In this document: piece after piece, positions 594 to 37,415 of the stretch | How the letters are laid out: every line of letters begins with the position of its first letter | Numbering within the stretch: the stretch's first letter is position 1 | Virus record (IMG/VR): IMGVR_UViG_3300038379_000484 | Coordinates: 471-64,470 of that record | Direction: 5' to 3' (one strand) | DNA: 64,000 bases | Source of the DNA: a virus | Notes under the pieces: model-generated | Database searches by the model: none | What the model saw: only the letters and a program-made list of their open reading frames with translations | Told to the model about the DNA's origin: nothing | Program-made: the position numbers and the translations under genes

Positions 594-1937
594 ATGGCCG
601 ACATCGGGGATTGGGCGAGCGCAGCCGGCGGGATCCCGCTCGGGATCATCCAAGGCTACAACCTCGGGCAGAAGCTCCAGCGCGACGAGGAGAAGGCGCT
701 TGCCGACATCGAGCAGGCGCGGCTGCGCAACGAACTGATGAAGTTCACCAGTGCCGAGTACATGGGGCCTGAGCAGACCGCGACGCGCTCGCTCGCGCAG
801 CAGTTGCAGCAGATTCAGTCGCAGCTTGGTATCGCCACTGGGGGCGCCGGCCTGGAGGCGACGCAAGCCCGCCGCCAAGACCTCGTCTCAGGTCTTGGCG
901 CGCAGATCGGCGCAGCAGCCGCTGGCGCTCGCACGCAGGAGCAGCGCGCACTTCTTGATGAGGAGTTGTTCCCGCAGCTTGCCGGCATCCAGCGCGCTGT
1001 CACGCAGCAGGACGTGGAACTGCTCCCACAAACGCTTGGTCTTCGCGCGGAGCAGCAGCAGGTGCAGCGCGGGCAAGCGCAATCGGCGCTGCGGCAACTC
1101 GACGAACTCACGGTGCAGAGTGGGGCCGTCAACACCATCCGTGACGCTGTCGCCGCGAATCCGAATGCGTCGCCATACGATCAGCTTTACCAAGCCTTCC
1201 AAGCCGCCCCGGCTCAGCAGAAGGCGATCATCGCCGCGCGCATGAACATCGCCGATACGCAGGATCTTGGCAGGATCGGCACTGTCGCTGAGGCTGATGC
1301 GTGGCTCCAGCGTCCGGGTCGCCAAGTGAAGTCGCGGGCGTGGCGCGAGGGCAACCAACTTGTGGTGGCTCCGATCGTCGTCGACCCGCAGACGGGGCAG
1401 CCTGCCATCGACACATCAAAGGCGCAGCGGTTCGCGTCGTGGGAGGAGTTCAAGCGCCAGTACGGTGCTGCGCTTCCACGCGGAACGCCTCAGGGCACAC
1501 AGAGGCCAGCGGCGACGACACCTCAGGACGTGCTGCGGCTGCTTGGTGGTCAGCCTCGGCCGGCAGTCGGCGCTGCTACTCCAGCCGCTGCCCCAGCCGC
1601 TGCCCCAGCCACCGGGGTGATGCCGCTACCCGCTCTCGGTGCTCGTGCTGCGCCGGCGCCAACGAACGTGGGTCCGCCCGCGCCACAGCCATTGGTGCAG
1701 GCCGCGCCAGCGGTGGCTGCGCCGTCTGCAACGGTTGCACCAGCCCGGCCATCAGCGATGGACATCAAGGTGATGCTTGCCGACGCCGCTCGTGGCGGAA
1801 CAAGGGGACAGGAGTTCCTGAATCAACTGATCTCGTCTACTGGTGGCGACATCTCTGGGTTGGGGCTGAACGTGAAGGAAAGGATGGAGATTCAGGGGCT
1901 TCTCGACGCGGCGATGGCTAGAGCACAGCGCAGGTAG
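594..1937 (+). CDS. putative DNA-ejection (internal virion) protein, 447 aa
   Basis: Gln/Ala-rich helical N-terminus, Pro/Ala-rich C-terminus, no Cys; position between tail genes and SLT/large protein is typical of podophage ejectosome genes. Confidence 0.6.
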   Translation: MADIGDWASAAGGIPLGIIQGYNLGQKLQRDEEKALADIEQARLRNELMKFTSAEYMGPEQTATRSLAQQLQQIQSQLGIATGGAGLEATQARRQDLVSGLGAQIGAAAAGARTQEQRALLDEELFPQLAGIQRAVTQQDVELLPQTLGLRAEQQQVQRGQAQSALRQLDELTVQSGAVNTIRDAVAANPNASPYDQLYQAFQAAPAQQKAIIAARMNIADTQDLGRIGTVAEADAWLQRPGRQVKSRAWREGNQLVVAPIVVDPQTGQPAIDTSKAQRFASWEEFKRQYGAALPRGTPQGTQRPAATTPQDVLRLLGGQPRPAVGAATPAAAPAAAPATGVMPLPALGARAAPAPTNVGPPAPQPLVQAAPAVAAPSATVAPARPSAMDIKVMLADAARGGTRGQEFLNQLISSTGGDISGLGLNVKERMEIQGLLDAAMARAQRR

Positions 1938-1943
1938 GCGGGA

Positions 1944-2768
1944 ATGGCAAACTACAGTCGCGACGATCTCATCGCTCTCGCTCGCCGTGAGGCGCAGCGC
2001 GCGGGGCTGCCACAGGAGATCGTGCCCACGTTCCTCGGTCTCGTGCAGCAGGAGAGCGGGTGGAATCCGCGCGCTGTTTCGAGCGCGGGTGCGCAAGGTC
2101 TGGGGCAGTTGATGCCGGACACCGCCCGCGGTCTCGGCGTCACCGACGTCTTCGACCCAGTTCAGAACCTGAGTGGTGCCGCGCGCTATTTGAAGCAGCA
2201 ACTGGATCGATTCGGCGACATCGGGCTCGCGCTGGCTGCCTACAATTGGGGCCCGGGTCGCGTGCGCAAGCTAGTCGACGATCCGAGATCAGTGCGCATC
2301 CCGAAGGAGACGATGGATTACGTGCCGAAGGTGCTCGGCCACGCATCCAGGTTCGGGTCGCAAATCGCGCCATCTACGGCAACGCTCGCCTTCTTCCCCA
2401 AGAGCGGCGACGTCATCAAGCAGACAGTGGACGCCGGTGTCACGCTTCGCACTGGCGCTGGTGGTGCTGCCGATGTCGACGCTCGGCTTCGCATGGGCAA
2501 GGCGCCGTCTGGGAAGGATCTCGGCGCTCCGCCTGCTGCGCCACCGATCGCTGGCGAAGTCCCCATCGGCGAGCAAGTGCCCGGTGTCGGGTTCCCCATG
2601 GCTGGCGAGCTTCCGACGATGGCGCAGGTGACGTCGAACAAGGCCGTGCAGAACGTGCGCTCGCTCGATGAATACCTGAAACAGCAATTTGGCCCAGTCG
2701 CGGCCGTTGCCGACCCCTTTCCGAAGGGTTATGACCAGAAGCTGATGCGCCTGATCGAGCAAGCCTGA
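1944..2768 (+). CDS. virion-associated lytic transglycosylase (SLT domain), 274 aa
   Basis: QQESGWNPRAVS, GLGQLMPDTA and ALAAYNWGPG SLT motifs, followed by ETMDYVPKV. Confidence 0.92.
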   Translation: MANYSRDDLIALARREAQRAGLPQEIVPTFLGLVQQESGWNPRAVSSAGAQGLGQLMPDTARGLGVTDVFDPVQNLSGAARYLKQQLDRFGDIGLALAAYNWGPGRVRKLVDDPRSVRIPKETMDYVPKVLGHASRFGSQIAPSTATLAFFPKSGDVIKQTVDAGVTLRTGAGGAADVDARLRMGKAPSGKDLGAPPAAPPIAGEVPIGEQVPGVGFPMAGELPTMAQVTSNKAVQNVRSLDEYLKQQFGPVAAVADPFPKGYDQKLMRLIEQA

Positions 2769-5700
2769 TGGCAGAAGAACTTACGCTGGCGTCGATGATC
2801 GGCCTCCAGCCGCAGGAGGAGAGCGATGGTATTGCGCTGGGTACGACATCCGTGGGACCACAAGCGCCGGCCGCCGCGCCCCAACCCGCCGCCGCGCCGC
2901 CCGAGACCGGGCTGGGTGAGATGATCCTCGGCGGCATCCCCGTCACGTCGCCGCGTGCGGCAAGCGCCGACAACATCCCGCTGGTGAGCGGCCCCGCTGC
3001 GCCGACGCCGCTCCAGTACGGCGGGCAGACGTGGGAGCAGGTAAAGGCGAGCCCGGAGTATCAGCAGGGATCAAGCGAGCGCCGCCGCGCGCTGGAGCAG
3101 AAGTGGCTCGAACAGGCGGAGAAGGTTGGCGCCGCTATCTTCACGAAGAAGGCCGATCGTCAGGCGTTCGCGCAGGGGCTGGCAGATCTCGTGCCGATCT
3201 CGAAGGCGCCGAAGGCGACGATCGGCGACCGCATCAGCGATCTCTGGACGGACATCACCATCGGCGGCGAGCAGTTGGTGGGCAGCTTGGGCTCGCTGTT
3301 CCGGCCCGGCGCCACGCTGAAGGACGACGACACCACGTTCCTCGCCGACTTCTTCAACCCGGCGCGTCGCGAGGAGGCGGCCAAGGAGCGTCGCGAGGGG
3401 CTGTCGGCGGCACGCAAGGATGCGGAGAAGATTCTCGAAGAACGGGCGGCCGCCGCTGAGGGCGAGATGGGCAAGTTCGCGGCGACGCTGGGCGCGTTCC
3501 GCGACATGCCCAGCCTCGTCGTGGGCCGCGCCGTGCAGCAGGTGCCGAACCTGCTCGGCACCCTCATCCCTGGCGCTGTCGTGGGCCGCGCCGCGCAGGT
3601 GGCTGGCGTGGGCACGCGCGCGGCTGCGGCCGCACGTGCGGCTGGCCCCATCACGCCCGCCGCGGCTGAGCTTGCTGCAGCCGGCGCTGTCGGGCGCGCG
3701 GCGACCGCTGGGGCCGGCGCGGCCGGCGGCGCGATCGGCGCCGGACAGGCGCGAGGGCAGGTCGCTGAGGCGCTGCAGGGCATGAAGGAGGAGCAGTGGC
3801 GCACCGACCCTGAGTACGTGCGCCTCGCCGGAGAGGTCGGGGCGGACGAAGCCAAGCGCCAGATCATCGAGGAGCGGTCGAGACTCGCCGGCGTCATCGG
3901 TTTCGGGCTGGGCACACTGGCCGGCGTAACCGGCCTGGAGCCGGCGGCGCTGCTGGGCAAGGCCGCAGCCTCGGGGCTGCGGGCGCGCGCCGCGCGCGTG
4001 GCCTCGGAACTGCTTGGCGAGGAGGTGGAGGAGATCACGCCGACGGTCCTCGCCAACGTCGAGAAGCGGGTGTACGCGCCCGAGACCGCGCTGACGGCCG
4101 GGGTGGGCAGGACGGCAGCGGAGACCCTGGCCGCCGCTGGCGGCCCTGCAGCCGCCGCTGGCGTGCTCCCGGTCGGCGCGCCCACTGCCGAGCCGGGTCA
4201 GCCCATCGCCCAGCCAGCGGCCCCACAGCCGCCTCCGCCGGCGCCTCCGACCGGGCCCGAGACCTTCATGCAGTCGGTCGAGCGTCAGAAGGCGTTCGCC
4301 CAGAGCCAGATCGAGGCGGTGCAGGCCAACCCCCTGCTGACGCCGACGGCCAAGGCATCGGCGATTGCTGCGCTGCAGCAACGGCTGGCCGACTGGGACA
4401 CGGCCGCCGCGGAGTTCCAGAACGTGCCGGCGGTGCGTGGGCTCCGCGAGGAATCGGAGCGGCTTGCCCGGCGCCAGCAGGAGATCGAGGGCGACACGCT
4501 CGACCCCGCGACGAAGGGCGCGTTGCTGAAGCCGCTCACCGAAAGGCAGGCGCGCATCGGCGAGTTGCTGGCGCTGAACGAGATGTCGGAACTCGACCTC
4601 GAACAGTACGTCGCAGATCGCGAGCAGGCGCTGCTCGACTTCGACGCCCAGCGCGGGACGGGCGCGCGCGCCGATCCGCAGATGGCGGCGCGCATCAACG
4701 AGGAGTTGGCGCAGGCCAACAAGATCCTCGACGAGCGCGCGATGGTGCAGACGCCGGCGGAGCGCGCGTTTGCTGCGCGCGAGCGCACCACCTTCCCGAA
4801 GGATCCGTCCGGTAACTATGTCTACCCCAGCGACACCGATCTCGCCCAGCTTCCCGTGCGTGACGCGTTCGCCGTCGTCTCCGACATCGCTCAGTCGCGG
4901 ATCTACGACGCCCGCACGAATCGCATCTACGAGCGCGCGGAGCGGGCGAAGTTCATTCGCGACGCCAGAGCCTTCGAGGAGGCGACGTCGAGAGCGCGCA
5001 CCATTCTCGACGCTCCCGCCGAGCAGGTGGAGGCGCTTGCTCAGGATCTCACGCAGGGACTGGTGAACCTGATTCGGCAGCGGATGCCGATCGGGCCCGG
5101 CCGCATCAACGAGCTTGCCGCTGTCATCGCTAGGCAGGCGGAGGCGACTGGCGAGCGCATCAATTGGGGCACCGCTGTCAGTCGGGCGAACACGCTCCTC
5201 AACGGCTTCATCAGGACGAACACGCCGCCATCGCAGCCCCCGCCCGGGACAGGGCCGCCGCCTCCGGTCGGGACGCCGACGAGCAAGCCCACCGCGCCGA
5301 AGGGCGTGCCGAAGTCGTTCGACACCGGCGGGTGGTCGCTCAATGACGGATGGATCTCTGGCAGCCAAGGCCGCAACGCCAAGAACGAGGCGGAAGCGCA
5401 GAAGATCGTCGACACCCTGAATCATGTCACCGCGGTCCCCGGCGGCTATCCGAAGCTCATCGTGCAGGCGATGGGCCTGCGCTTCCTCGTCTGCACCGCG
5501 CGAGGTGGCGGCTGGTATATGGGCAGCGGCGACCCGAATGGCGTTGGCCAGACCGCCATTCAGATCGAATCCGATCGTGACACGAACCTGCACGTCACCG
5601 CTCACGAGATCAGCCACGCTCTCGACGATATTCTCCGCACCGGGACGGGGCAGTACCTCTCGCGGATCAACCCCGGCTTCGAGCGCGGCGGCGTGCTGAG

Positions 5701-8700
5701 AAAAGAGATCGAGGCATGGGACAAGCGGTACGTGAGGGACAACAGCCTCAGCGTCGGCCATCAACTCGACTTCTGGTACCCGCTGCGTTGTGGGATGTAC
5801 GACCGCTCCGAGAGCAAGATGCGTTCGGAGTTGTTCGCGCAGGTACTGGGCTACTACCACAGCAACCGACAGGATCTTGAAAAATACTGTCCGCAGTCCT
5901 ATGCTTTCGCCAAGGAGATCTTCGATGGCCTCAGACAACTCGAAAGCACTGGACAGCTTGACGCTAACGGAATTGCTGGAGTCGTACAGCAAGCGTTTTC
6001 CGGGCTGGGCGGTGCCACCGGTGCAAAACCCGTCAGCCCTCCCGCCGCGGGACCAGCAGCCCCTTCGCCAGCAGTTAGTCCTGGCGCTGGGGTCGGGCCT
6101 GCCGGTGGTGGAGTGGGAGCAGGACTACGGGTCGGGGGCGAACCCCAACCAGGAGTTCTAACGGAGGCTGAGAATGCCATCGACCAAGCCCTTCAGCGGG
6201 ACACAGCCTTCCTCAGCGGCGACGCCGCTCGGGCAAGACAGGAGCAAGCGCTCACTGACGCCATCGACGAGACGCGCGCAGAGATCGCTGCTCGCGCTGC
6301 CCCAACTCCAGCAACTCAGCCCGGAGCAGCGCCTGCAGGTGCTGCAGCGGGCGCTCGACCGGCTCAGGCAGCCCAGCCCGGACCAGCCCAACCAGCAGCC
6401 GGGCCCGCAGGCGCTCGTGCTCAACCCGCAGCAGCCCCCGCAGCCCGGGCAGAGCCGGCAGCCGCTCCAGCAGTGGCGCAGCCCCGCGGGATCGCGGCGC
6501 GGTATGGCGTAAAGACGTCGAGCGCGAGCAAGGTCAGGGCAGCGCTCGCGCAGATCTTCGGCATCAACCCGGCGAACGTCGCCAGGGCGCTCCCCAACAT
6601 CGAGATCGTCCCGCTCTCGGCGATCGAGTTCGTCCCGGATCAGGCTAACCCGACCCAACTCCGCGGGGCGGTAACGCTTGGCGATGGCTCGCGGTTGACT
6701 GGTCTGGAGGACACGACCGGCGCGTTCTATCACCCGAAGACGAATCGCATCGTCATCATCGCCGACAACATCCTCGATGGCAGTGAGCGCGCCGTCATCT
6801 ACCACGAGCTATTCCACAAGCGCGGAGGCCAGCTTCTCGGGCGCGAGCAGATCCAGCGCCTGCGCGATCAGGTGATGCAGTGGGGGAACGCGCCAGAGGG
6901 TAGCCCGGAGCGCGCTATCTTCGACGCAGCCATGCCGAGGGTTCGCGCCGCGCTGCGCGGCAAAACCGGGGAGGCGCTGCTGAACACGCGCGATGAGGAG
7001 GTGCTGCCCTACTTCATCGAGGAGGCGGTCAAGGCCGGCTACAACTACGATCCGAAGAAGGCGCTGTCGCGCAACGTCGTCCAGCGCTGGCTGAACGATG
7101 TCGGCAACGCCATCCGCTCCGCGCTCACACGCGCTTTCGGTCGCCAGCCCAAGGCGTTCGACGCCAACGATCTGCTCGCGGCAGCCTACGGTGCGGCTCA
7201 GCTTGAACTCCCGGGCGTTGGCGCCCGTCGCGCTGCTCGCGTTCTCGAAGCCGAAGCGGCATTCGCGCCTCGCCGTGAGGAGATCACACGTCGCGGCGTC
7301 GAGTACGTGCCTGAGCGAGCTACAGCCGCAGAGCGCACGACGAGGATGCGGCCGACACAGTTCCGCGGCGTGAGCCCGGATCGCGTCAACCCGATCTATG
7401 GTTCCAGCGCAGAGATCGCCGCCGCGAATCGCGAGGCGCCTCCGCCGGGGCCCGGTCCAGACGCCAGCTTCTCTATCTACGAGCACTTCAAGCCGACGAA
7501 GGCGGCGCCGGTAAAGACGCGCGCAGACGTGCGCAAATGGGCGCAGACGCAGGAATTGCCGACCGCTGAGTGGATGCCGCAGGCGCGCGACCGCTTCATC
7601 GAGAACTGGGTCGATCACCAGCGCCCGTTCTACAACTGGTTGCGCGACAACGTGCTGTCGATGAAGTCGTGGCAGGAGTTGAAGCTCATCCCTGGCAAGC
7701 TGCGGGCGTTGAATGATCGCTATACGCGCGAGATCATCGACCCGATCGCCGAGGCCACCAACACCTTCGCGAAGAAGTACAAGATCACGCCGGCGCAGGC
7801 TGCTGAGGTGGTCGGCCAATGGGCGACGATGCGCCACATCCCGGAGGCGAATGCGCAGCTTCGGGCGAAGATCATGGCCGACATCCGCGCCGGTGACAGC
7901 ACCGGCGCTCGGCGCCTCAAGCAGTTCGACGAGACGCAGCGTGGCCAGCACCCGGACGATGGCGATCAAGAGCGCGCGCCAATGGCTGGCGGCTACACCG
8001 ACACCGAGGCGAACGAGATCCGCACCGAGATCGAGCGCAGGCACGGCGTCGACGACCTCACCCGTATCGGCGACATGATCGTCGACGGCTTCGCCAAGAT
8101 GAAGGAGGAATCGCTGAAGTCGGGGCAGCTTTCTCAAGAGGCTGTTTCCAGGTTCCCGAAGTTCAAGCACTACGTCGCGCTCACCGGAACGCCATGGGAT
8201 GACAGCGCGAGCGACGCCTTCGGCAGCTACGTCAGCCCGAACGTGCTGAAGGAGCGCGGCGGCATGACCACGCATGTCGCAGATCCTGCTCTGGTCGCGC
8301 TCGTCGACCGCATCGGTCGCGTCGGCGCTTACGCTGCATCAGCCGACTTCAAGGCCGAGATCAACAACCTCTGGGAACAGAACGGTGGCGACAACAACAA
8401 GATCGGCATCGAGAAACTATCGTCGAACACGGCGCAGTCGCCTTTCGACTCCGACGTGATCTGGCAGGATCCCAAGGGCAAGCGCTGGATCTTCCGCTTC
8501 ACCGGTCCCGCTCAAGGCGTTGGTCAGGCTATCCTGTCGAAGAACAGGGAATACGCCGACAACCTCGTCCTGCGCAATCTCGATCGCGCGACGCGACTGT
8601 TCTCAAGAGCGGTGACGCAGTGGACGATGAGCTTCGCGCCGATCAACATGCTCCGCGACATTCAGGAGAAGTCGGTCCTGATCCGCAGCCGCGATGTGCG

Positions 8701-10276
8701 CACACCGGACGGCAGTGCCATCGACCCGAACGCCGTATTCAAGCGCACGTGGGCGAACGCGCTCAAGCCCGAACTGTGGAAGGCGGCTTACGACATCGGC
8801 TTCGGCGCGAAGGCGAACGAGAGCACCGCCAGCGGCAGGCTCGCAAACGAACTCGTGGCGAACGGCGGTCTCTCCACGTGGGGGCAGACGCTCAGGCGCG
8901 GTCGCGATGAGATCGCGAAGGAGATCAAGCGCAAGGGAGGTCTGGGTAAGCGCATCGCTCAGGTCGACGACTTCGTCCAGAACTACAACACCATGTTCGA
9001 GGTGGTCTCGTCTCTGGCTGCGCACGCCGCCATGCGCGAACTCGGGGTCGACCCGAAGACGGCAGCGTTCCAGACGCTCGATCTGATGAACTTCCAGAAT
9101 CAGGGCGCGAAGACGGCGTGGATCAGGACGATGTACTCGTTCTTCAATCCGGCCATGCAGAGCGGCCGCAACCTGTTCGGGCAACTCGCGACCAAGAGAG
9201 GGCAACGCGATGCGATGGCGATGGCGTTCGTCAGCGCTGGCCTCTACGCGCTGGCGAAGATGCTGGCTCCAGACGACGAGGAGCTTGGCGACAAGCTCGA
9301 CCAGCGCGGTAGCTTCGAGGTCGAGCGCAACCTCCCCATCACGATCGGCGACTCCTCGCTGAAGCTCCCCGTCGGATTCGGGCTGCCGCAATTCGTCTGG
9401 GCTAACGTGGTCAACGCCGCTAGATTCGCAAGCGGCCGCTACGACGCTGGCTCTGCGGTGGCGCAGACCGCGACATCGTTCCTGAAAACATTCTCTCCGA
9501 TCCCGCCGTCGGAGATCGAGTTCACAAAGCAGCCGAACAACTTCCTGTTGAAGTCGGCGACGCCAACTGTGTTCAGGCCGGTGGTGGATCTCGCAACCGA
9601 CACCAACGCGTGGGGGCAGAAGCTCACCGCGTTCTACCCGGACAAGACCAAGTTCAGGTCGGAGCAGGGCGCGCTGGCGACGCCAGTGCTCTATAAGAAT
9701 CTGGCAAGGGAGATGCGCGAGACAACTGGCATCGACGCCTATCCAGAGCAGTGGCGCGTCTTCACCGAGGGCACGCCTCTTGGGTGGGGGCCGCTCGGCT
9801 ACATGCTGAAGTCGGTGGCTCAGTCCAACGCCGACATGGAGGGCAGGAAGAAGGACGCCATCGACGAGATTCCGGGGTCTACGATCTTCCGCGTGCTGGG
9901 CGCGTCGAGGTTCTTCGGCGGGACTAGCCGTTATCTCGACGCTCGCTACCACGAGCAGTATGAGCGCGCTCTCGTCGACAGGCGCGAGTTCGCCGCTCAG
10001 GACGCCGCGGGTAAGGGTGCGGCGTGGCTCCGCGCAAACCCGGAGCGGGCGCGCCGGATCGAAGCGTTGAGAGCGCAGGAGACGGAGATGCGCGCTCTCA
10101 CCAAGGACTACAATGCCATCATCCGCTCCATGCAGGGCGGCACGATCAACTTGGACAGCGGCCAGCGCCAGCTTCAGTCGATCGCGGATCGCAGGGAGAA
10201 GCAGATGCGCGGGTTCCTGCGGTTGGCTCGGCAGTGGGATGAGGACGAGCTTGGTGAGCCGGAGGAAGTCGAATGA
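2768..10276 (+). CDS. large polyvalent internal virion protein, 2502 aa: two zincin-like metallopeptidase domains and an LPD38-like C-terminus
   Basis: HEISH...ELFAQ and HELFH...EEVLPY motifs; C-terminal SFFNPAMQS / LKLPVGFG / PVVDLATDTNAWGQKL pattern resembles LPD38; consistent GC3-rich coding frame. Confidence 0.8.
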   Translation: MAEELTLASMIGLQPQEESDGIALGTTSVGPQAPAAAPQPAAAPPETGLGEMILGGIPVTSPRAASADNIPLVSGPAAPTPLQYGGQTWEQVKASPEYQQGSSERRRALEQKWLEQAEKVGAAIFTKKADRQAFAQGLADLVPISKAPKATIGDRISDLWTDITIGGEQLVGSLGSLFRPGATLKDDDTTFLADFFNPARREEAAKERREGLSAARKDAEKILEERAAAAEGEMGKFAATLGAFRDMPSLVVGRAVQQVPNLLGTLIPGAVVGRAAQVAGVGTRAAAAARAAGPITPAAAELAAAGAVGRAATAGAGAAGGAIGAGQARGQVAEALQGMKEEQWRTDPEYVRLAGEVGADEAKRQIIEERSRLAGVIGFGLGTLAGVTGLEPAALLGKAAASGLRARAARVASELLGEEVEEITPTVLANVEKRVYAPETALTAGVGRTAAETLAAAGGPAAAAGVLPVGAPTAEPGQPIAQPAAPQPPPPAPPTGPETFMQSVERQKAFAQSQIEAVQANPLLTPTAKASAIAALQQRLADWDTAAAEFQNVPAVRGLREESERLARRQQEIEGDTLDPATKGALLKPLTERQARIGELLALNEMSELDLEQYVADREQALLDFDAQRGTGARADPQMAARINEELAQANKILDERAMVQTPAERAFAARERTTFPKDPSGNYVYPSDTDLAQLPVRDAFAVVSDIAQSRIYDARTNRIYERAERAKFIRDARAFEEATSRARTILDAPAEQVEALAQDLTQGLVNLIRQRMPIGPGRINELAAVIARQAEATGERINWGTAVSRANTLLNGFIRTNTPPSQPPPGTGPPPPVGTPTSKPTAPKGVPKSFDTGGWSLNDGWISGSQGRNAKNEAEAQKIVDTLNHVTAVPGGYPKLIVQAMGLRFLVCTARGGGWYMGSGDPNGVGQTAIQIESDRDTNLHVTAHEISHALDDILRTGTGQYLSRINPGFERGGVLRKEIEAWDKRYVRDNSLSVGHQLDFWYPLRCGMYDRSESKMRSELFAQVLGYYHSNRQDLEKYCPQSYAFAKEIFDGLRQLESTGQLDANGIAGVVQQAFSGLGGATGAKPVSPPAAGPAAPSPAVSPGAGVGPAGGGVGAGLRVGGEPQPGVLTEAENAIDQALQRDTAFLSGDAARARQEQALTDAIDETRAEIAARAAPTPATQPGAAPAGAAAGARPAQAAQPGPAQPAAGPAGARAQPAAAPAARAEPAAAPAVAQPRGIAARYGVKTSSASKVRAALAQIFGINPANVARALPNIEIVPLSAIEFVPDQANPTQLRGAVTLGDGSRLTGLEDTTGAFYHPKTNRIVIIADNILDGSERAVIYHELFHKRGGQLLGREQIQRLRDQVMQWGNAPEGSPERAIFDAAMPRVRAALRGKTGEALLNTRDEEVLPYFIEEAVKAGYNYDPKKALSRNVVQRWLNDVGNAIRSALTRAFGRQPKAFDANDLLAAAYGAAQLELPGVGARRAARVLEAEAAFAPRREEITRRGVEYVPERATAAERTTRMRPTQFRGVSPDRVNPIYGSSAEIAAANREAPPPGPGPDASFSIYEHFKPTKAAPVKTRADVRKWAQTQELPTAEWMPQARDRFIENWVDHQRPFYNWLRDNVLSMKSWQELKLIPGKLRALNDRYTREIIDPIAEATNTFAKKYKITPAQAAEVVGQWATMRHIPEANAQLRAKIMADIRAGDSTGARRLKQFDETQRGQHPDDGDQERAPMAGGYTDTEANEIRTEIERRHGVDDLTRIGDMIVDGFAKMKEESLKSGQLSQEAVSRFPKFKHYVALTGTPWDDSASDAFGSYVSPNVLKERGGMTTHVADPALVALVDRIGRVGAYAASADFKAEINNLWEQNGGDNNKIGIEKLSSNTAQSPFDSDVIWQDPKGKRWIFRFTGPAQGVGQAILSKNREYADNLVLRNLDRATRLFSRAVTQWTMSFAPINMLRDIQEKSVLIRSRDVRTPDGSAIDPNAVFKRTWANALKPELWKAAYDIGFGAKANESTASGRLANELVANGGLSTWGQTLRRGRDEIAKEIKRKGGLGKRIAQVDDFVQNYNTMFEVVSSLAAHAAMRELGVDPKTAAFQTLDLMNFQNQGAKTAWIRTMYSFFNPAMQSGRNLFGQLATKRGQRDAMAMAFVSAGLYALAKMLAPDDEELGDKLDQRGSFEVERNLPITIGDSSLKLPVGFGLPQFVWANVVNAARFASGRYDAGSAVAQTATSFLKTFSPIPPSEIEFTKQPNNFLLKSATPTVFRPVVDLATDTNAWGQKLTAFYPDKTKFRSEQGALATPVLYKNLAREMRETTGIDAYPEQWRVFTEGTPLGWGPLGYMLKSVAQSNADMEGRKKDAIDEIPGSTIFRVLGASRFFGGTSRYLDARYHEQYERALVDRREFAAQDAAGKGAAWLRANPERARRIEALRAQETEMRALTKDYNAIIRSMQGGTINLDSGQRQLQSIADRREKQMRGFLRLARQWDEDELGEPEEVE

Positions 10277-36400: not shown

Positions 36401-36610
36401 GTGCAAGTCTCCAGCCCCAGCCGGCGCGAGGTCGCGTCAGTCTGCTGGGGAGATCGGCTACATGCAGAAAGCGTGCCACCTCGGCCTTGCGTGCGTGCGC
36501 ATGCGTGCGCGTTCGATGCGTGAGGGCGCGGACGAAGGTGGGAGGGCGGGAAGGGGAGCGGGGGCGGCGTTGACGTCGCACGCCGTCACTGTCTGACGCC
36601 CGGCGTCAGC

Positions 36611-36624
36611 GTCAGGATGCTGAC
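36611..36624. promoter_or_regulatory. operator-like palindrome GTCAGGATGCTGAC
   Basis: One mismatch to the 28490 palindrome; intergenic, upstream of the early cluster. Confidence 0.55.
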
Positions 36625-36878
36625 GGACCCGCGCCCGGCACCGGCGCGTCGTCGAGCGCTGTCGCCGGTGACGCAGCACGAGGAGCGCAATCGTCGTGGC
36701 GTGGCGCGCAGCGCGTGCACCAAGGCGGCGGCCGGCGGGCAGCCCGCGGTGGCGCAGCAACCACCCCCGGCGCACCGGACCACGCCAGCGCCCCCGGGGC
36801 CCGGGAAACTTCATATACCCCCGTCCACGCGCGCTTACCCGCCCTCACCGCTGCTGCGGTGCAACACCCCCCGGCCCA

Positions 36879-36894
36879 TGTTTCACGTGGAACA
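36879..36894. promoter_or_regulatory. parS: chromosomal-type parS site (ParB/Spo0J binding)
   Basis: TGTTTCACGTGGAACA, whose reverse complement TGTTCCACGTGAAACA is the canonical bacterial parS 16-mer; intergenic. Confidence 0.8.
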
Positions 36895-36969
36895 CCATGG
36901 GGGCGTGTGAGCGCTCGCTCAGCTTTTCCGCCAGTCCAGATCAGGAGAGTGAGTGGTCACTCACATCGT

Positions 36970-37040
36970 TGGAGCGGGTGGCGGGAGTTGAACCCGCGGG
37001 GCGCGGTTGTCGAGGCCGAGCCCCTGCCCGGCACACCCAC
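36970..37040 (-). ncRNA. tRNA-like RNA (acceptor stem, T-arm, CCA; no canonical D or anticodon arm), 71 nt
   Basis: GUGGGUG/CACCCGC acceptor stem, U73, encoded CCA, T-arm GCGGG-UUCAACU-CCCGC; central 36 nt folds as a GGGGC/GCCCC helix. Confidence 0.6.
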
Positions 37041-37294
37041 GTTGGCCGGCAGTCACGCCGGCTGACGGTCGCCTCCTCCCGAGGCCGGGAGGCCGAGGCT
37101 CGAAACGAGAGGGAAACAGGCACCCTCGTCCGCTGACGCCGTCGTCGCATTCGCTGTATATCCGGGCGGGGCCCCGGCTTGCGATCGTCGCTATGCGCAG
37201 CGATGGGATCGGGCTTGGTGAACAGCCCCAGCGTCCCCCTCCACCTGTCCAGCAGCCTTCGGGGTACGGGTGGAGCCTGCGCTCAACCCGGGGC

Positions 37295-37324
37295 TTGCGT
37301 CAACAGGGCGCGGGGCGTTACGAT
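37295..37324 (+). promoter_or_regulatory. candidate promoter of the packaging/structural operon
   Basis: TTGCGT-N18-TACGAT, followed by the palindrome at 37336-37351. Confidence 0.45.
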
Positions 37325-37364
37325 GGAAAAATCTGGTGAGCGAGCGCTCACACTGAGGAGAGCC

Positions 37365-37415
37365 ATGGGTTGTCCCTGCCGCGGGCGTCGCCCCACACCA
37401 CCGCCGAAGCGCTAG
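37365..37415 (+). CDS. 16-aa basic micro-ORF upstream of terS
   Basis: SD GAGGAG; MGCPCRGRRPTPPPKR; stop 2 nt before the terS ATG. Confidence 0.4.
   Translation: MGCPCRGRRPTPPPKR

Follow-up and report, generated by a model that had tools for sequence, protein, structure and literature searches.

What kind of RNA ends like a tRNA at its acceptor side but departs from one in its core, and what might it do for the phage that encodes it? This question is raised by a 71-nt element on the minus strand of the window, by which we mean the whole stretch of DNA that was analyzed (64,000 nucleotides, most of a 65,392-base IMG/VR virus record rated 100% complete). Standard ARAGORN reports no tRNA gene in the window, and Rfam makes no call there at its gathering thresholds. 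An earlier sequence-only reading had expected tRNA detectors to return a pseudo-tRNA or a partial hit for this element. ARAGORN returned neither, and the partial hit came from Infernal/Rfam solely as a sub-threshold match, the best permissive clan hit of the RNA being tRNA-Sec at 19.9 bits against a threshold of 47. The Sec-like 6-bp D-arm that Infernal proposed for the window copy was rejected, because the homologues do not keep such a pairing.

The element lies in a 960-bp non-coding stretch (36407-37369) of the GC3-based gene map, which we call the hub. A block of small leftward genes is located to the left of the hub, and rightward genes for an HTH/DNA-binding protein, the large terminase, and the portal follow to its right. 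Phage genes found in the genome further include those for ERF, SSB, RusA, a NinB-like protein, and lysozyme. Pfam scans of 30 phage proteins revealed no tRNA-related enzyme. The sole Pfam match of a 2,502-aa protein encoded at 2768-10276 (plus strand) is the large polyvalent protein domain LPD38. Judged by TerL, the nearest isolated phages infect Proteobacteria and show an identity of at most 34%; the carriers of the RNA are a small phage clade without a cultured close relative.

A compact four-helix cloverleaf

The RNA of the window is organized in the following parts.

36970..37040, minus strand: whole tRNA-shaped RNA, 71 nt, read from 37040 to 36970
37034..37040, minus strand: acceptor stem, 5′ strand, paired with 36974-36980
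37025..37033, minus strand: mini-hairpin (D-arm remnant), 3 bp, 3-nt loop with GG
36998..37024, minus strand: long interrupted arm (anticodon-arm analogue), 5 bp, 1x1 mismatch, 3 bp, and 9-nt loop, from the RNAalifold consensus and covariation
37007..37015, minus strand: loop of the long arm, 9 nt, class I, identical in 4 members, U followed by CGA
36981..36997, minus strand: T-arm, 5 bp, 7-nt T-loop
36974..36980, minus strand: acceptor stem, 3′ strand, from the direct sequence and the homologue alignment
36970..36973, minus strand: discriminator U and encoded CCA, from the direct sequence

The sequence and layout given by the sequence-only reading are correct to the base at 37040..36970 of the minus strand. 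The acceptor stem, T-arm, and CCA that it had called intact are all present: a 7-bp acceptor stem with a single U-G pair (2:71), a 5-bp T-stem, a 7-nt T-loop that matches the tRNA consensus, U73, and CCA. A 36-nt middle connects the 5′ strand of the acceptor stem with the T-stem. The minimum free energy fold calculated with RNAfold (−35.9 kcal/mol) is the cloverleaf-type fold of the same reading. Within this stretch of 76% GC (65% for the genome), the folding-energy z-score is only −1.43, so that folding energy alone is no evidence.

A chance origin is disfavored on other grounds. A strict scan for acceptor stem and T-arm over the 64 kb returned the tRNA-shaped site and a single weak site (1315-1392) with an atypical T-loop, a covariance model built from the window sequence alone detected seven homologues in related phages (E-values from 1e-10 to 3e-3), and the homologues carry compensatory changes.

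Relatives of the phage were gathered by TerL searches of viral and metagenome contigs, which yielded about a dozen contigs, and through homologues of the adjacent 212-aa protein in a large protein collection, whose contigs were then fetched. Membership in the family was defined by a structural scan and by the covariance model from the window copy alone, and both agree. The eight distinct members are the window copy and those on contigs L003, L004, L167 (which also stands for L168-L170), L173 (cut by the contig end), L177, L178 (which also stands for L179 and L180), and L182. They measure 70-74 nt, and all eight occupy the same hub and are oriented opposite to the terminase genes. The family is small and confined to this one phage clade: no member outside the clade was detected by a T-arm pattern scan of viral contigs or by the refined model R2. 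All hits of the pattern scan were ordinary tRNAs or tmRNA 3′ ends, apart from a few odd tRNAs that are unrelated. The exact 3′ 28-mer of the window RNA has no match in viral contigs, and a metagenome scan by TerL added no further carrier.

Alignments with MAFFT staggered the 5′ ends of the members and were unusable; therefore, a model-guided alignment was used instead. In this alignment of eight members, which was fitted to the covariance model and hence leans toward it, standard pairs occupy 93.3% of the cells, and both sides have changed in 15 of the 23 pairs. The covariation score of 0.62 compares with 0.17 in shuffles (0 of 500 reach 0.62), and sliding the partners by 1-3 columns leaves at most 0.11. 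RNAalifold arrived at the same consensus fold from an ungapped alignment of the first three members.

The acceptor stem is paired in 100% of the cells, and four of its seven pairs (2, 4, 5, and 6) changed on both sides, which bears out the earlier description of a tRNA-like RNA with a paired 5′ strand. The first pair of the T-stem (49:65) switches from G-C to C-G. Pair 3:70 is G-C in all seven members that have this position. Position 73 is a U in six of the seven complete members and a G in the remaining one, and CCA is encoded in five of the seven, the exceptions being L004 and L177.

The middle of the RNA is organized differently from what had been proposed, namely a short linker of 9 nt and a helix that was not considered an anticodon arm. 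The supposed linker is a conserved mini-hairpin (8-12 nt, with a stem of 2-4 bp), in which three of three pairs covary and the loop contains GG in all eight members. In tRNA, the GG of the D-loop is the feature that docks the D-loop onto the T-loop. The helix is a covarying analogue of the anticodon arm with a conserved anticodon-like loop. In this long arm, 3-6 bp form the outer helix and 2-4 bp the inner one, with a mismatch or bulge between them (9-10 layers in total), and seven of its eight pairs show changes on both sides.

The loop of the long arm falls into three classes: an identical 9-mer in the window, L003, L177, and L178 (class I); an 8-mer in L004, L167, and L182 (class II); and a 7-mer in L173 (class III). 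When the loops are read in one register, a U precedes a triplet whose third base is A (CGA, GCA, or UCA) in every one of them, similar to an anticodon loop. Within each class the loop is invariant, although the stems diverge. Few or no connector nucleotides (0-2) are found between the helices. Because the linker is a conserved mini-hairpin and is followed by a covarying arm with an anticodon-like loop, the RNA is a cloverleaf and not an acceptor/T minihelix with a spacer. The family RNA is a selected, conserved structure that assumes a compact four-helix cloverleaf.

The leader and its accessory module

The RNA is surrounded by further conserved elements of the hub.

37156..37163, minus strand: conserved promoter-like (−10-like) motif with putative promoter activity, 123 nt upstream of the RNA, occurring once in the genome
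37105..37130, minus strand: conserved leader hairpin after the promoter-like motif, unique in the genome
36971..37105, minus strand: ∼135-nt segment with two hairpins and the tRNA-shaped RNA, missing in L002, flanks conserved
37045..37062, minus strand: second leader hairpin, 6-nt loop invariant, stem covarying between phages
36949..36964, minus strand: operator-like perfect palindrome immediately downstream of the RNA
36905-36921 and 37336-37351: further operator-like perfect palindromes flanking the hub
36879..36894, no strand assigned: parS-type site ∼75 nt downstream of the RNA

In all eight carriers, the same promoter-like motif precedes the RNA by 70-191 nt on the same strand. A scan with the sigma-70 consensus found no promoter, and the promoter call denotes a match to the motif only. 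The leader hairpin is recognizable in seven of the eight carriers and has diverged in L004. Motif and leader hairpin are common to 13-14 related hubs, with or without the RNA, and may constitute a nut/put-like early leader. The second hairpin, which has counterparts in L177, L178, L167, L182, and L166, resembles a further conserved element of the hub at the RNA or ssDNA level. It is arranged in a fixed order with the operator-like palindromes and the parS-type site. Depending on the relative, the tRNA-shaped RNA is positioned just upstream or just downstream of the first palindrome.

Eight of 14 related phage hubs contain the tRNA-shaped RNA, and six (L002, L018, L166, L171, L175, and L176) possess the motif and the leader without it. 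In L018, a 500-nt insert with a textbook sigma-70-like promoter (1140-1200, minus strand) takes the place of the RNA. L002 is the closest TerL relative having the hub region (79% identity to the TerL of the window phage), and its hub lacks the ∼135-nt segment listed above. The six RNA-less hubs and this gap in L002 indicate that the tRNA-shaped RNA is an optional, accessory module of a conserved leader.

Relation to tRNAs and to known tRNA mimics

The family shares the 7-bp acceptor stem, the 5-bp T-stem, the consensus T-loop, and N73 with CCA with canonical tRNA (RF00005, clan CL00001). Also common to both are the four arms in tRNA order, the D-side loop with GG, and the U that precedes the anticodon-like triplet. 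However, equivalents of nucleotides 8, 9, and 26 are missing from the family, and the variable loop is absent. Whereas the canonical D-arm has 3-4 bp and a 7-11-nt loop, the D-arm of the family spans 8-12 nt altogether. The canonical anticodon arm consists of a 5-bp stem and a 7-nt loop, in contrast to the 9-10 layers with a mismatch or bulge and the 7-9-nt loop of the family.

The 3′ 29 nt of the window RNA match true phage tRNA-Gly genes at 28 of 29 positions, in agreement with the earlier assignment of a Gly-like top half. Model R2 gives 50-90 bits for full-length members and 34 bits for the cut copy of L173, compared with at most 49 bits for canonical phage tRNAs; the top canonical hits of determined type are tRNA-Cys(GCA) and tRNA-Gly (40-47 bits). 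A genuine phage tRNA-Cys in L026 has the G-U-G-G start, U73, and the GCA loop in common with the family, and relaxed ARAGORN in mitochondrial mode calls the L004 member a D-armless tRNA-Cys(GCA). The simplest origin would be descent from a U73-type tRNA with a Cys/Gly-like top half.

To our knowledge, no compact-core or D-armless tRNA has been described from phages or bacteria. The animal mitochondrial tRNA-Ser(AGY) and tRNA-Pyl (reviewed in PMC7609411) resemble the family in their reduced D-region, their lengthened or interrupted anticodon stem, and their short or absent variable loop. However, the anticodon stem of these tRNAs is lengthened by 1 bp, as opposed to about 4 in the family RNA, and they are, unlike the family RNA, proven adaptors with dedicated synthetases. 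According to a publication from 2024 (PMC11551756), every known bacterial tRNA is canonical.

Some other odd tRNA-like genes were encountered in viral contigs. Compact 71-nt genes that ARAGORN does not call are located at L032:3844-3914 (minus strand) and L117:4075-4145 (plus strand) of unrelated contigs; they feature GUA and CCA anticodon loops and encode CCA. At ∼2280-2350 (plus strand) of L025, a tRNA-like gene possesses an acceptor stem, a D-arm, and a T-arm, and ∼8 nt replace the anticodon arm.

Among known tRNA mimics, mascRNA (RF01684) scores 25-32 bits with class II and class III members, below its gathering score of 42.5. As in mascRNA/menRNA and the plant mitochondrial t-elements, a tRNA-shaped module with a small D-side hairpin would be embedded in a longer transcript, here within the putative leader. 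Cleavage of mascRNA is by RNase P and RNase Z, and the RNA is CCA-tailed. In the family, however, CCA is mostly encoded and the loop of the long arm is conserved. Since mascRNA is eukaryotic, the likeness is one of resemblance and not of kinship.

Another small RNA with a leader origin is C4, which is reportedly cut by RNase P from the leader of a regulated operon, in a plasmid-living phage. Its loop pairs with a site in its own transcript, and it is not known to possess a T-arm cloverleaf. In contrast, no complement of the long-arm loop with up to one mismatch was found in the own transcript of seven family members, as searched near gene starts, 1.5 kb downstream, and 400 nt upstream. The genome seemingly contains the loop's complement in excess, which is most simply explained by codon composition. 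C4 is the antisense RNA of phages P1 and P7 (Hartmann et al. 1995, as cited in PMC4919922).

The bacterial Y RNA YrlA is a tRNA-mimicking non-coding RNA that is modified and cut by tRNA enzymes and also occurs in some phages (PMC4201824). However, its ends are located on the anticodon side, its acceptor is closed, and it has a Ro60-binding stem and rsr as a neighbor, none of which is found in the family; Rfam gave no hit of the window RNA to bacterial Y RNA. Mimics of tRNA are thus already known (mascRNA, t-elements, YrlA, C4, and the TLD-only RNA of phage DS6A, which is discussed below), but we found no description of the present architecture.

Possible roles of the RNA

We tentatively favor, with somewhat less than even confidence, that the RNA is a maintained, non-decoding tRNA mimic that is excised by host tRNA-processing enzymes and engages a tRNA-binding partner. 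During its evolution, the core of a U73-type tRNA ancestor would have been rebuilt into a compact four-helix junction, with the acceptor stem and T-arm being kept. The D-arm would have shrunk to a 2-4-bp hairpin that retained the GG loop, and the would-be variable loop would pair with the 3′ part of the D-region to form an anticodon arm of ∼9-10 layers. Transcription would proceed leftward from the promoter-like motif, which would place the RNA within the leader of the leftward (presumably early) genes.

Bacterial RNase P requires only the acceptor/T stack and N73-CCA. The RNA offers these features to RNase P and the 3′-processing enzymes, with a 12-bp acceptor/T stack, G1, and N73-CCA, and because stack and N73-CCA suffice, host RNase P should cleave at G1. 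Trimming by 3′ exonucleases or the action of the CCA-adding enzyme would then complete the 3′ end and leave a stable RNA of ∼71 nt. This mimic would present the top half of a tRNA, together with a class-specific anticodon-like loop, to some tRNA-binding partner.

The absence of connectors, a loop that lies ∼4 layers further from the junction, and a loop size that varies between 7 and 9 nt all argue for a non-decoding role. At the same time, compensatory changes preserve the arm, and its loop does not vary within a class, which points to more than a cutting signal. It is this combination that leads us to favor a released mimic with a tRNA-binding partner. One point against it is the resemblance of the loops to real anticodon loops. 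We rank this reading before a processing signal that acts only in cis, which in turn is placed before a working, if odd, tRNA.

A purely cis-acting role appears rather unlikely. The RNA would then be a processing or stability signal that attracts RNase P and 3′ enzymes, by which the leftward leader or mRNA would be cut or capped as with the plant mitochondrial t-elements and the mascRNA module of MALAT1, and the released RNA itself would have no job. Such a signal is consistent with the location of the RNA within the leader, between the promoter-like motif and the leftward genes, with mascRNA being the Rfam family that class II and III members resemble most, and with close relatives that manage without the RNA. 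However, a minihelix would be enough for RNase P, yet an arm of 9-10 layers is kept by compensation in seven of eight pairs, and its loop stays invariant within classes across diverged stems. There is also no upstream gene on that strand that could be punctuated.

It is improbable that the RNA serves as a working non-canonical tRNA, which would be charged (as a U73-type tRNA, with Cys or Gly) and would serve the ribosome, possibly to decode UGA or a four-base codon by means of the 8-9-nt loops. The acceptor stem, T-arm, GG loop, U73, and CCA are retained as they would be in an adaptor, and in each loop the U is followed by CGA, GCA, or UCA, with A always as the third base. The call of L004 as a D-armless tRNA-Cys(GCA) and the features shared with the genuine tRNA-Cys of L026 point in the same direction. 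However, neither standard ARAGORN nor Rfam at gathering thresholds makes a call, connector and variable nucleotides are few or none, and the fold suggests that the loop lies ∼4 layers beyond its position in tRNA. Further, the loop varies between 7 and 9 nt, and position 37 is a C in two classes. The acceptor identity is independent of the "anticodon," because the same acceptor type occurs with CGA, GCA, or UCA. At a genome GC of 65%, UCG is no rare codon type, and in the UCA-class contig, the standard code yields an intact TerL.

We give hardly any credence to a mimic of the tRNA-like domain (TLD) of tmRNA that titrates SmpB or blocks trans-translation. The sequence-only reading had noted that the T-arm equals that of Escherichia coli ssrA, which is the case: the 17 nt of the window T-arm are letter-identical and lie within annotated ssrA, since a 70-nt E. 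coli stretch that contains them is 100% identical to annotated ssrA and occurs in 5,426 of 5,426 genomes. However, ordinary tRNAs commonly carry the same T-arm. The wider likeness to the TLD that had been proposed does not hold, since G3:U70, A73, and a match to the tmRNA model are all absent. The 3:70 pair is G-C without exception, and the discriminator is never A but either U or G.

The closest precedent for such a mimic is the TLD-only tmRNA of mycobacteriophage DS6A, which has been published together with the inhibition by TLD-only RNA (Hudson, Lau, Williams 2014; PMC4131195). It measures ∼80 nt and, like the family RNA, is phage-encoded and combines an acceptor stem, a T-arm, and one extra helix; the gross layout (acceptor, short 5′ segment, one helix, and T-arm) is similar in both. 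However, DS6A keeps G3:U70, A73, and the tmRNA D-loop motif, none of which is present in the family. The tmRNA covariance model accordingly scores 43.2 bits with the DS6A RNA, which served as positive control, but has no hit at E ≤ 10 in the genome of the window phage, and conversely R2 does not hit DS6A.

Least credible of all is an attP core or decayed tRNA gene fragment without a function at the RNA level: although the 3′ 29 nt are 28/29 identical to phage tRNA-Gly genes and the element comes and goes among close relatives, the record rated 100% complete encodes no tyrosine or serine recombinase (no match to PF00589 or PF00239, with control profiles giving hits), the 3′ 25 nt have no match in a species-representative collection of 185,579 bacterial genomes, no related prophage was found by TerL in the bacterial genomes scanned, and the compensatory changes in all four helices indicate selection on the fold. 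With integrase, host 3′-end match, and related prophage all missing, the element is not a simple attP fragment, as had already been argued from the letters of the window.

As to what the favored tRNA mimic might engage, a specific but quite improbable possibility is a decoy tRNA that would undergo maturation, and perhaps charging, in the manner of a U73 tRNA and would then sequester or mislead a host enzyme attacking tRNA during infection. If so, the target could be a nuclease directed at the anticodon loop or a CCA-end-modifying enzyme. Each of the three loop types (CGA, GCA, and UCA, with C37 in two of them) would then mark the host tRNA that is targeted in the respective host, and the gain and loss of the module among close relatives would reflect an arms race.

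The usual explanation for tRNA genes in phages is codon supply or, more recently, the escape from tRNA-cutting defenses. The present family keeps everything that tRNA-processing enzymes see, namely the acceptor/T stack, the elbow features of the GG loop and T-loop, and N73-CCA. Its core is rebuilt unlike that of any known bacterial adaptor tRNA, and its anticodon-like loop is conserved. Standard annotation with ARAGORN and Rfam is blind to such RNAs, which provide a compact natural test case for which parts of the tRNA shape matter beyond decoding.
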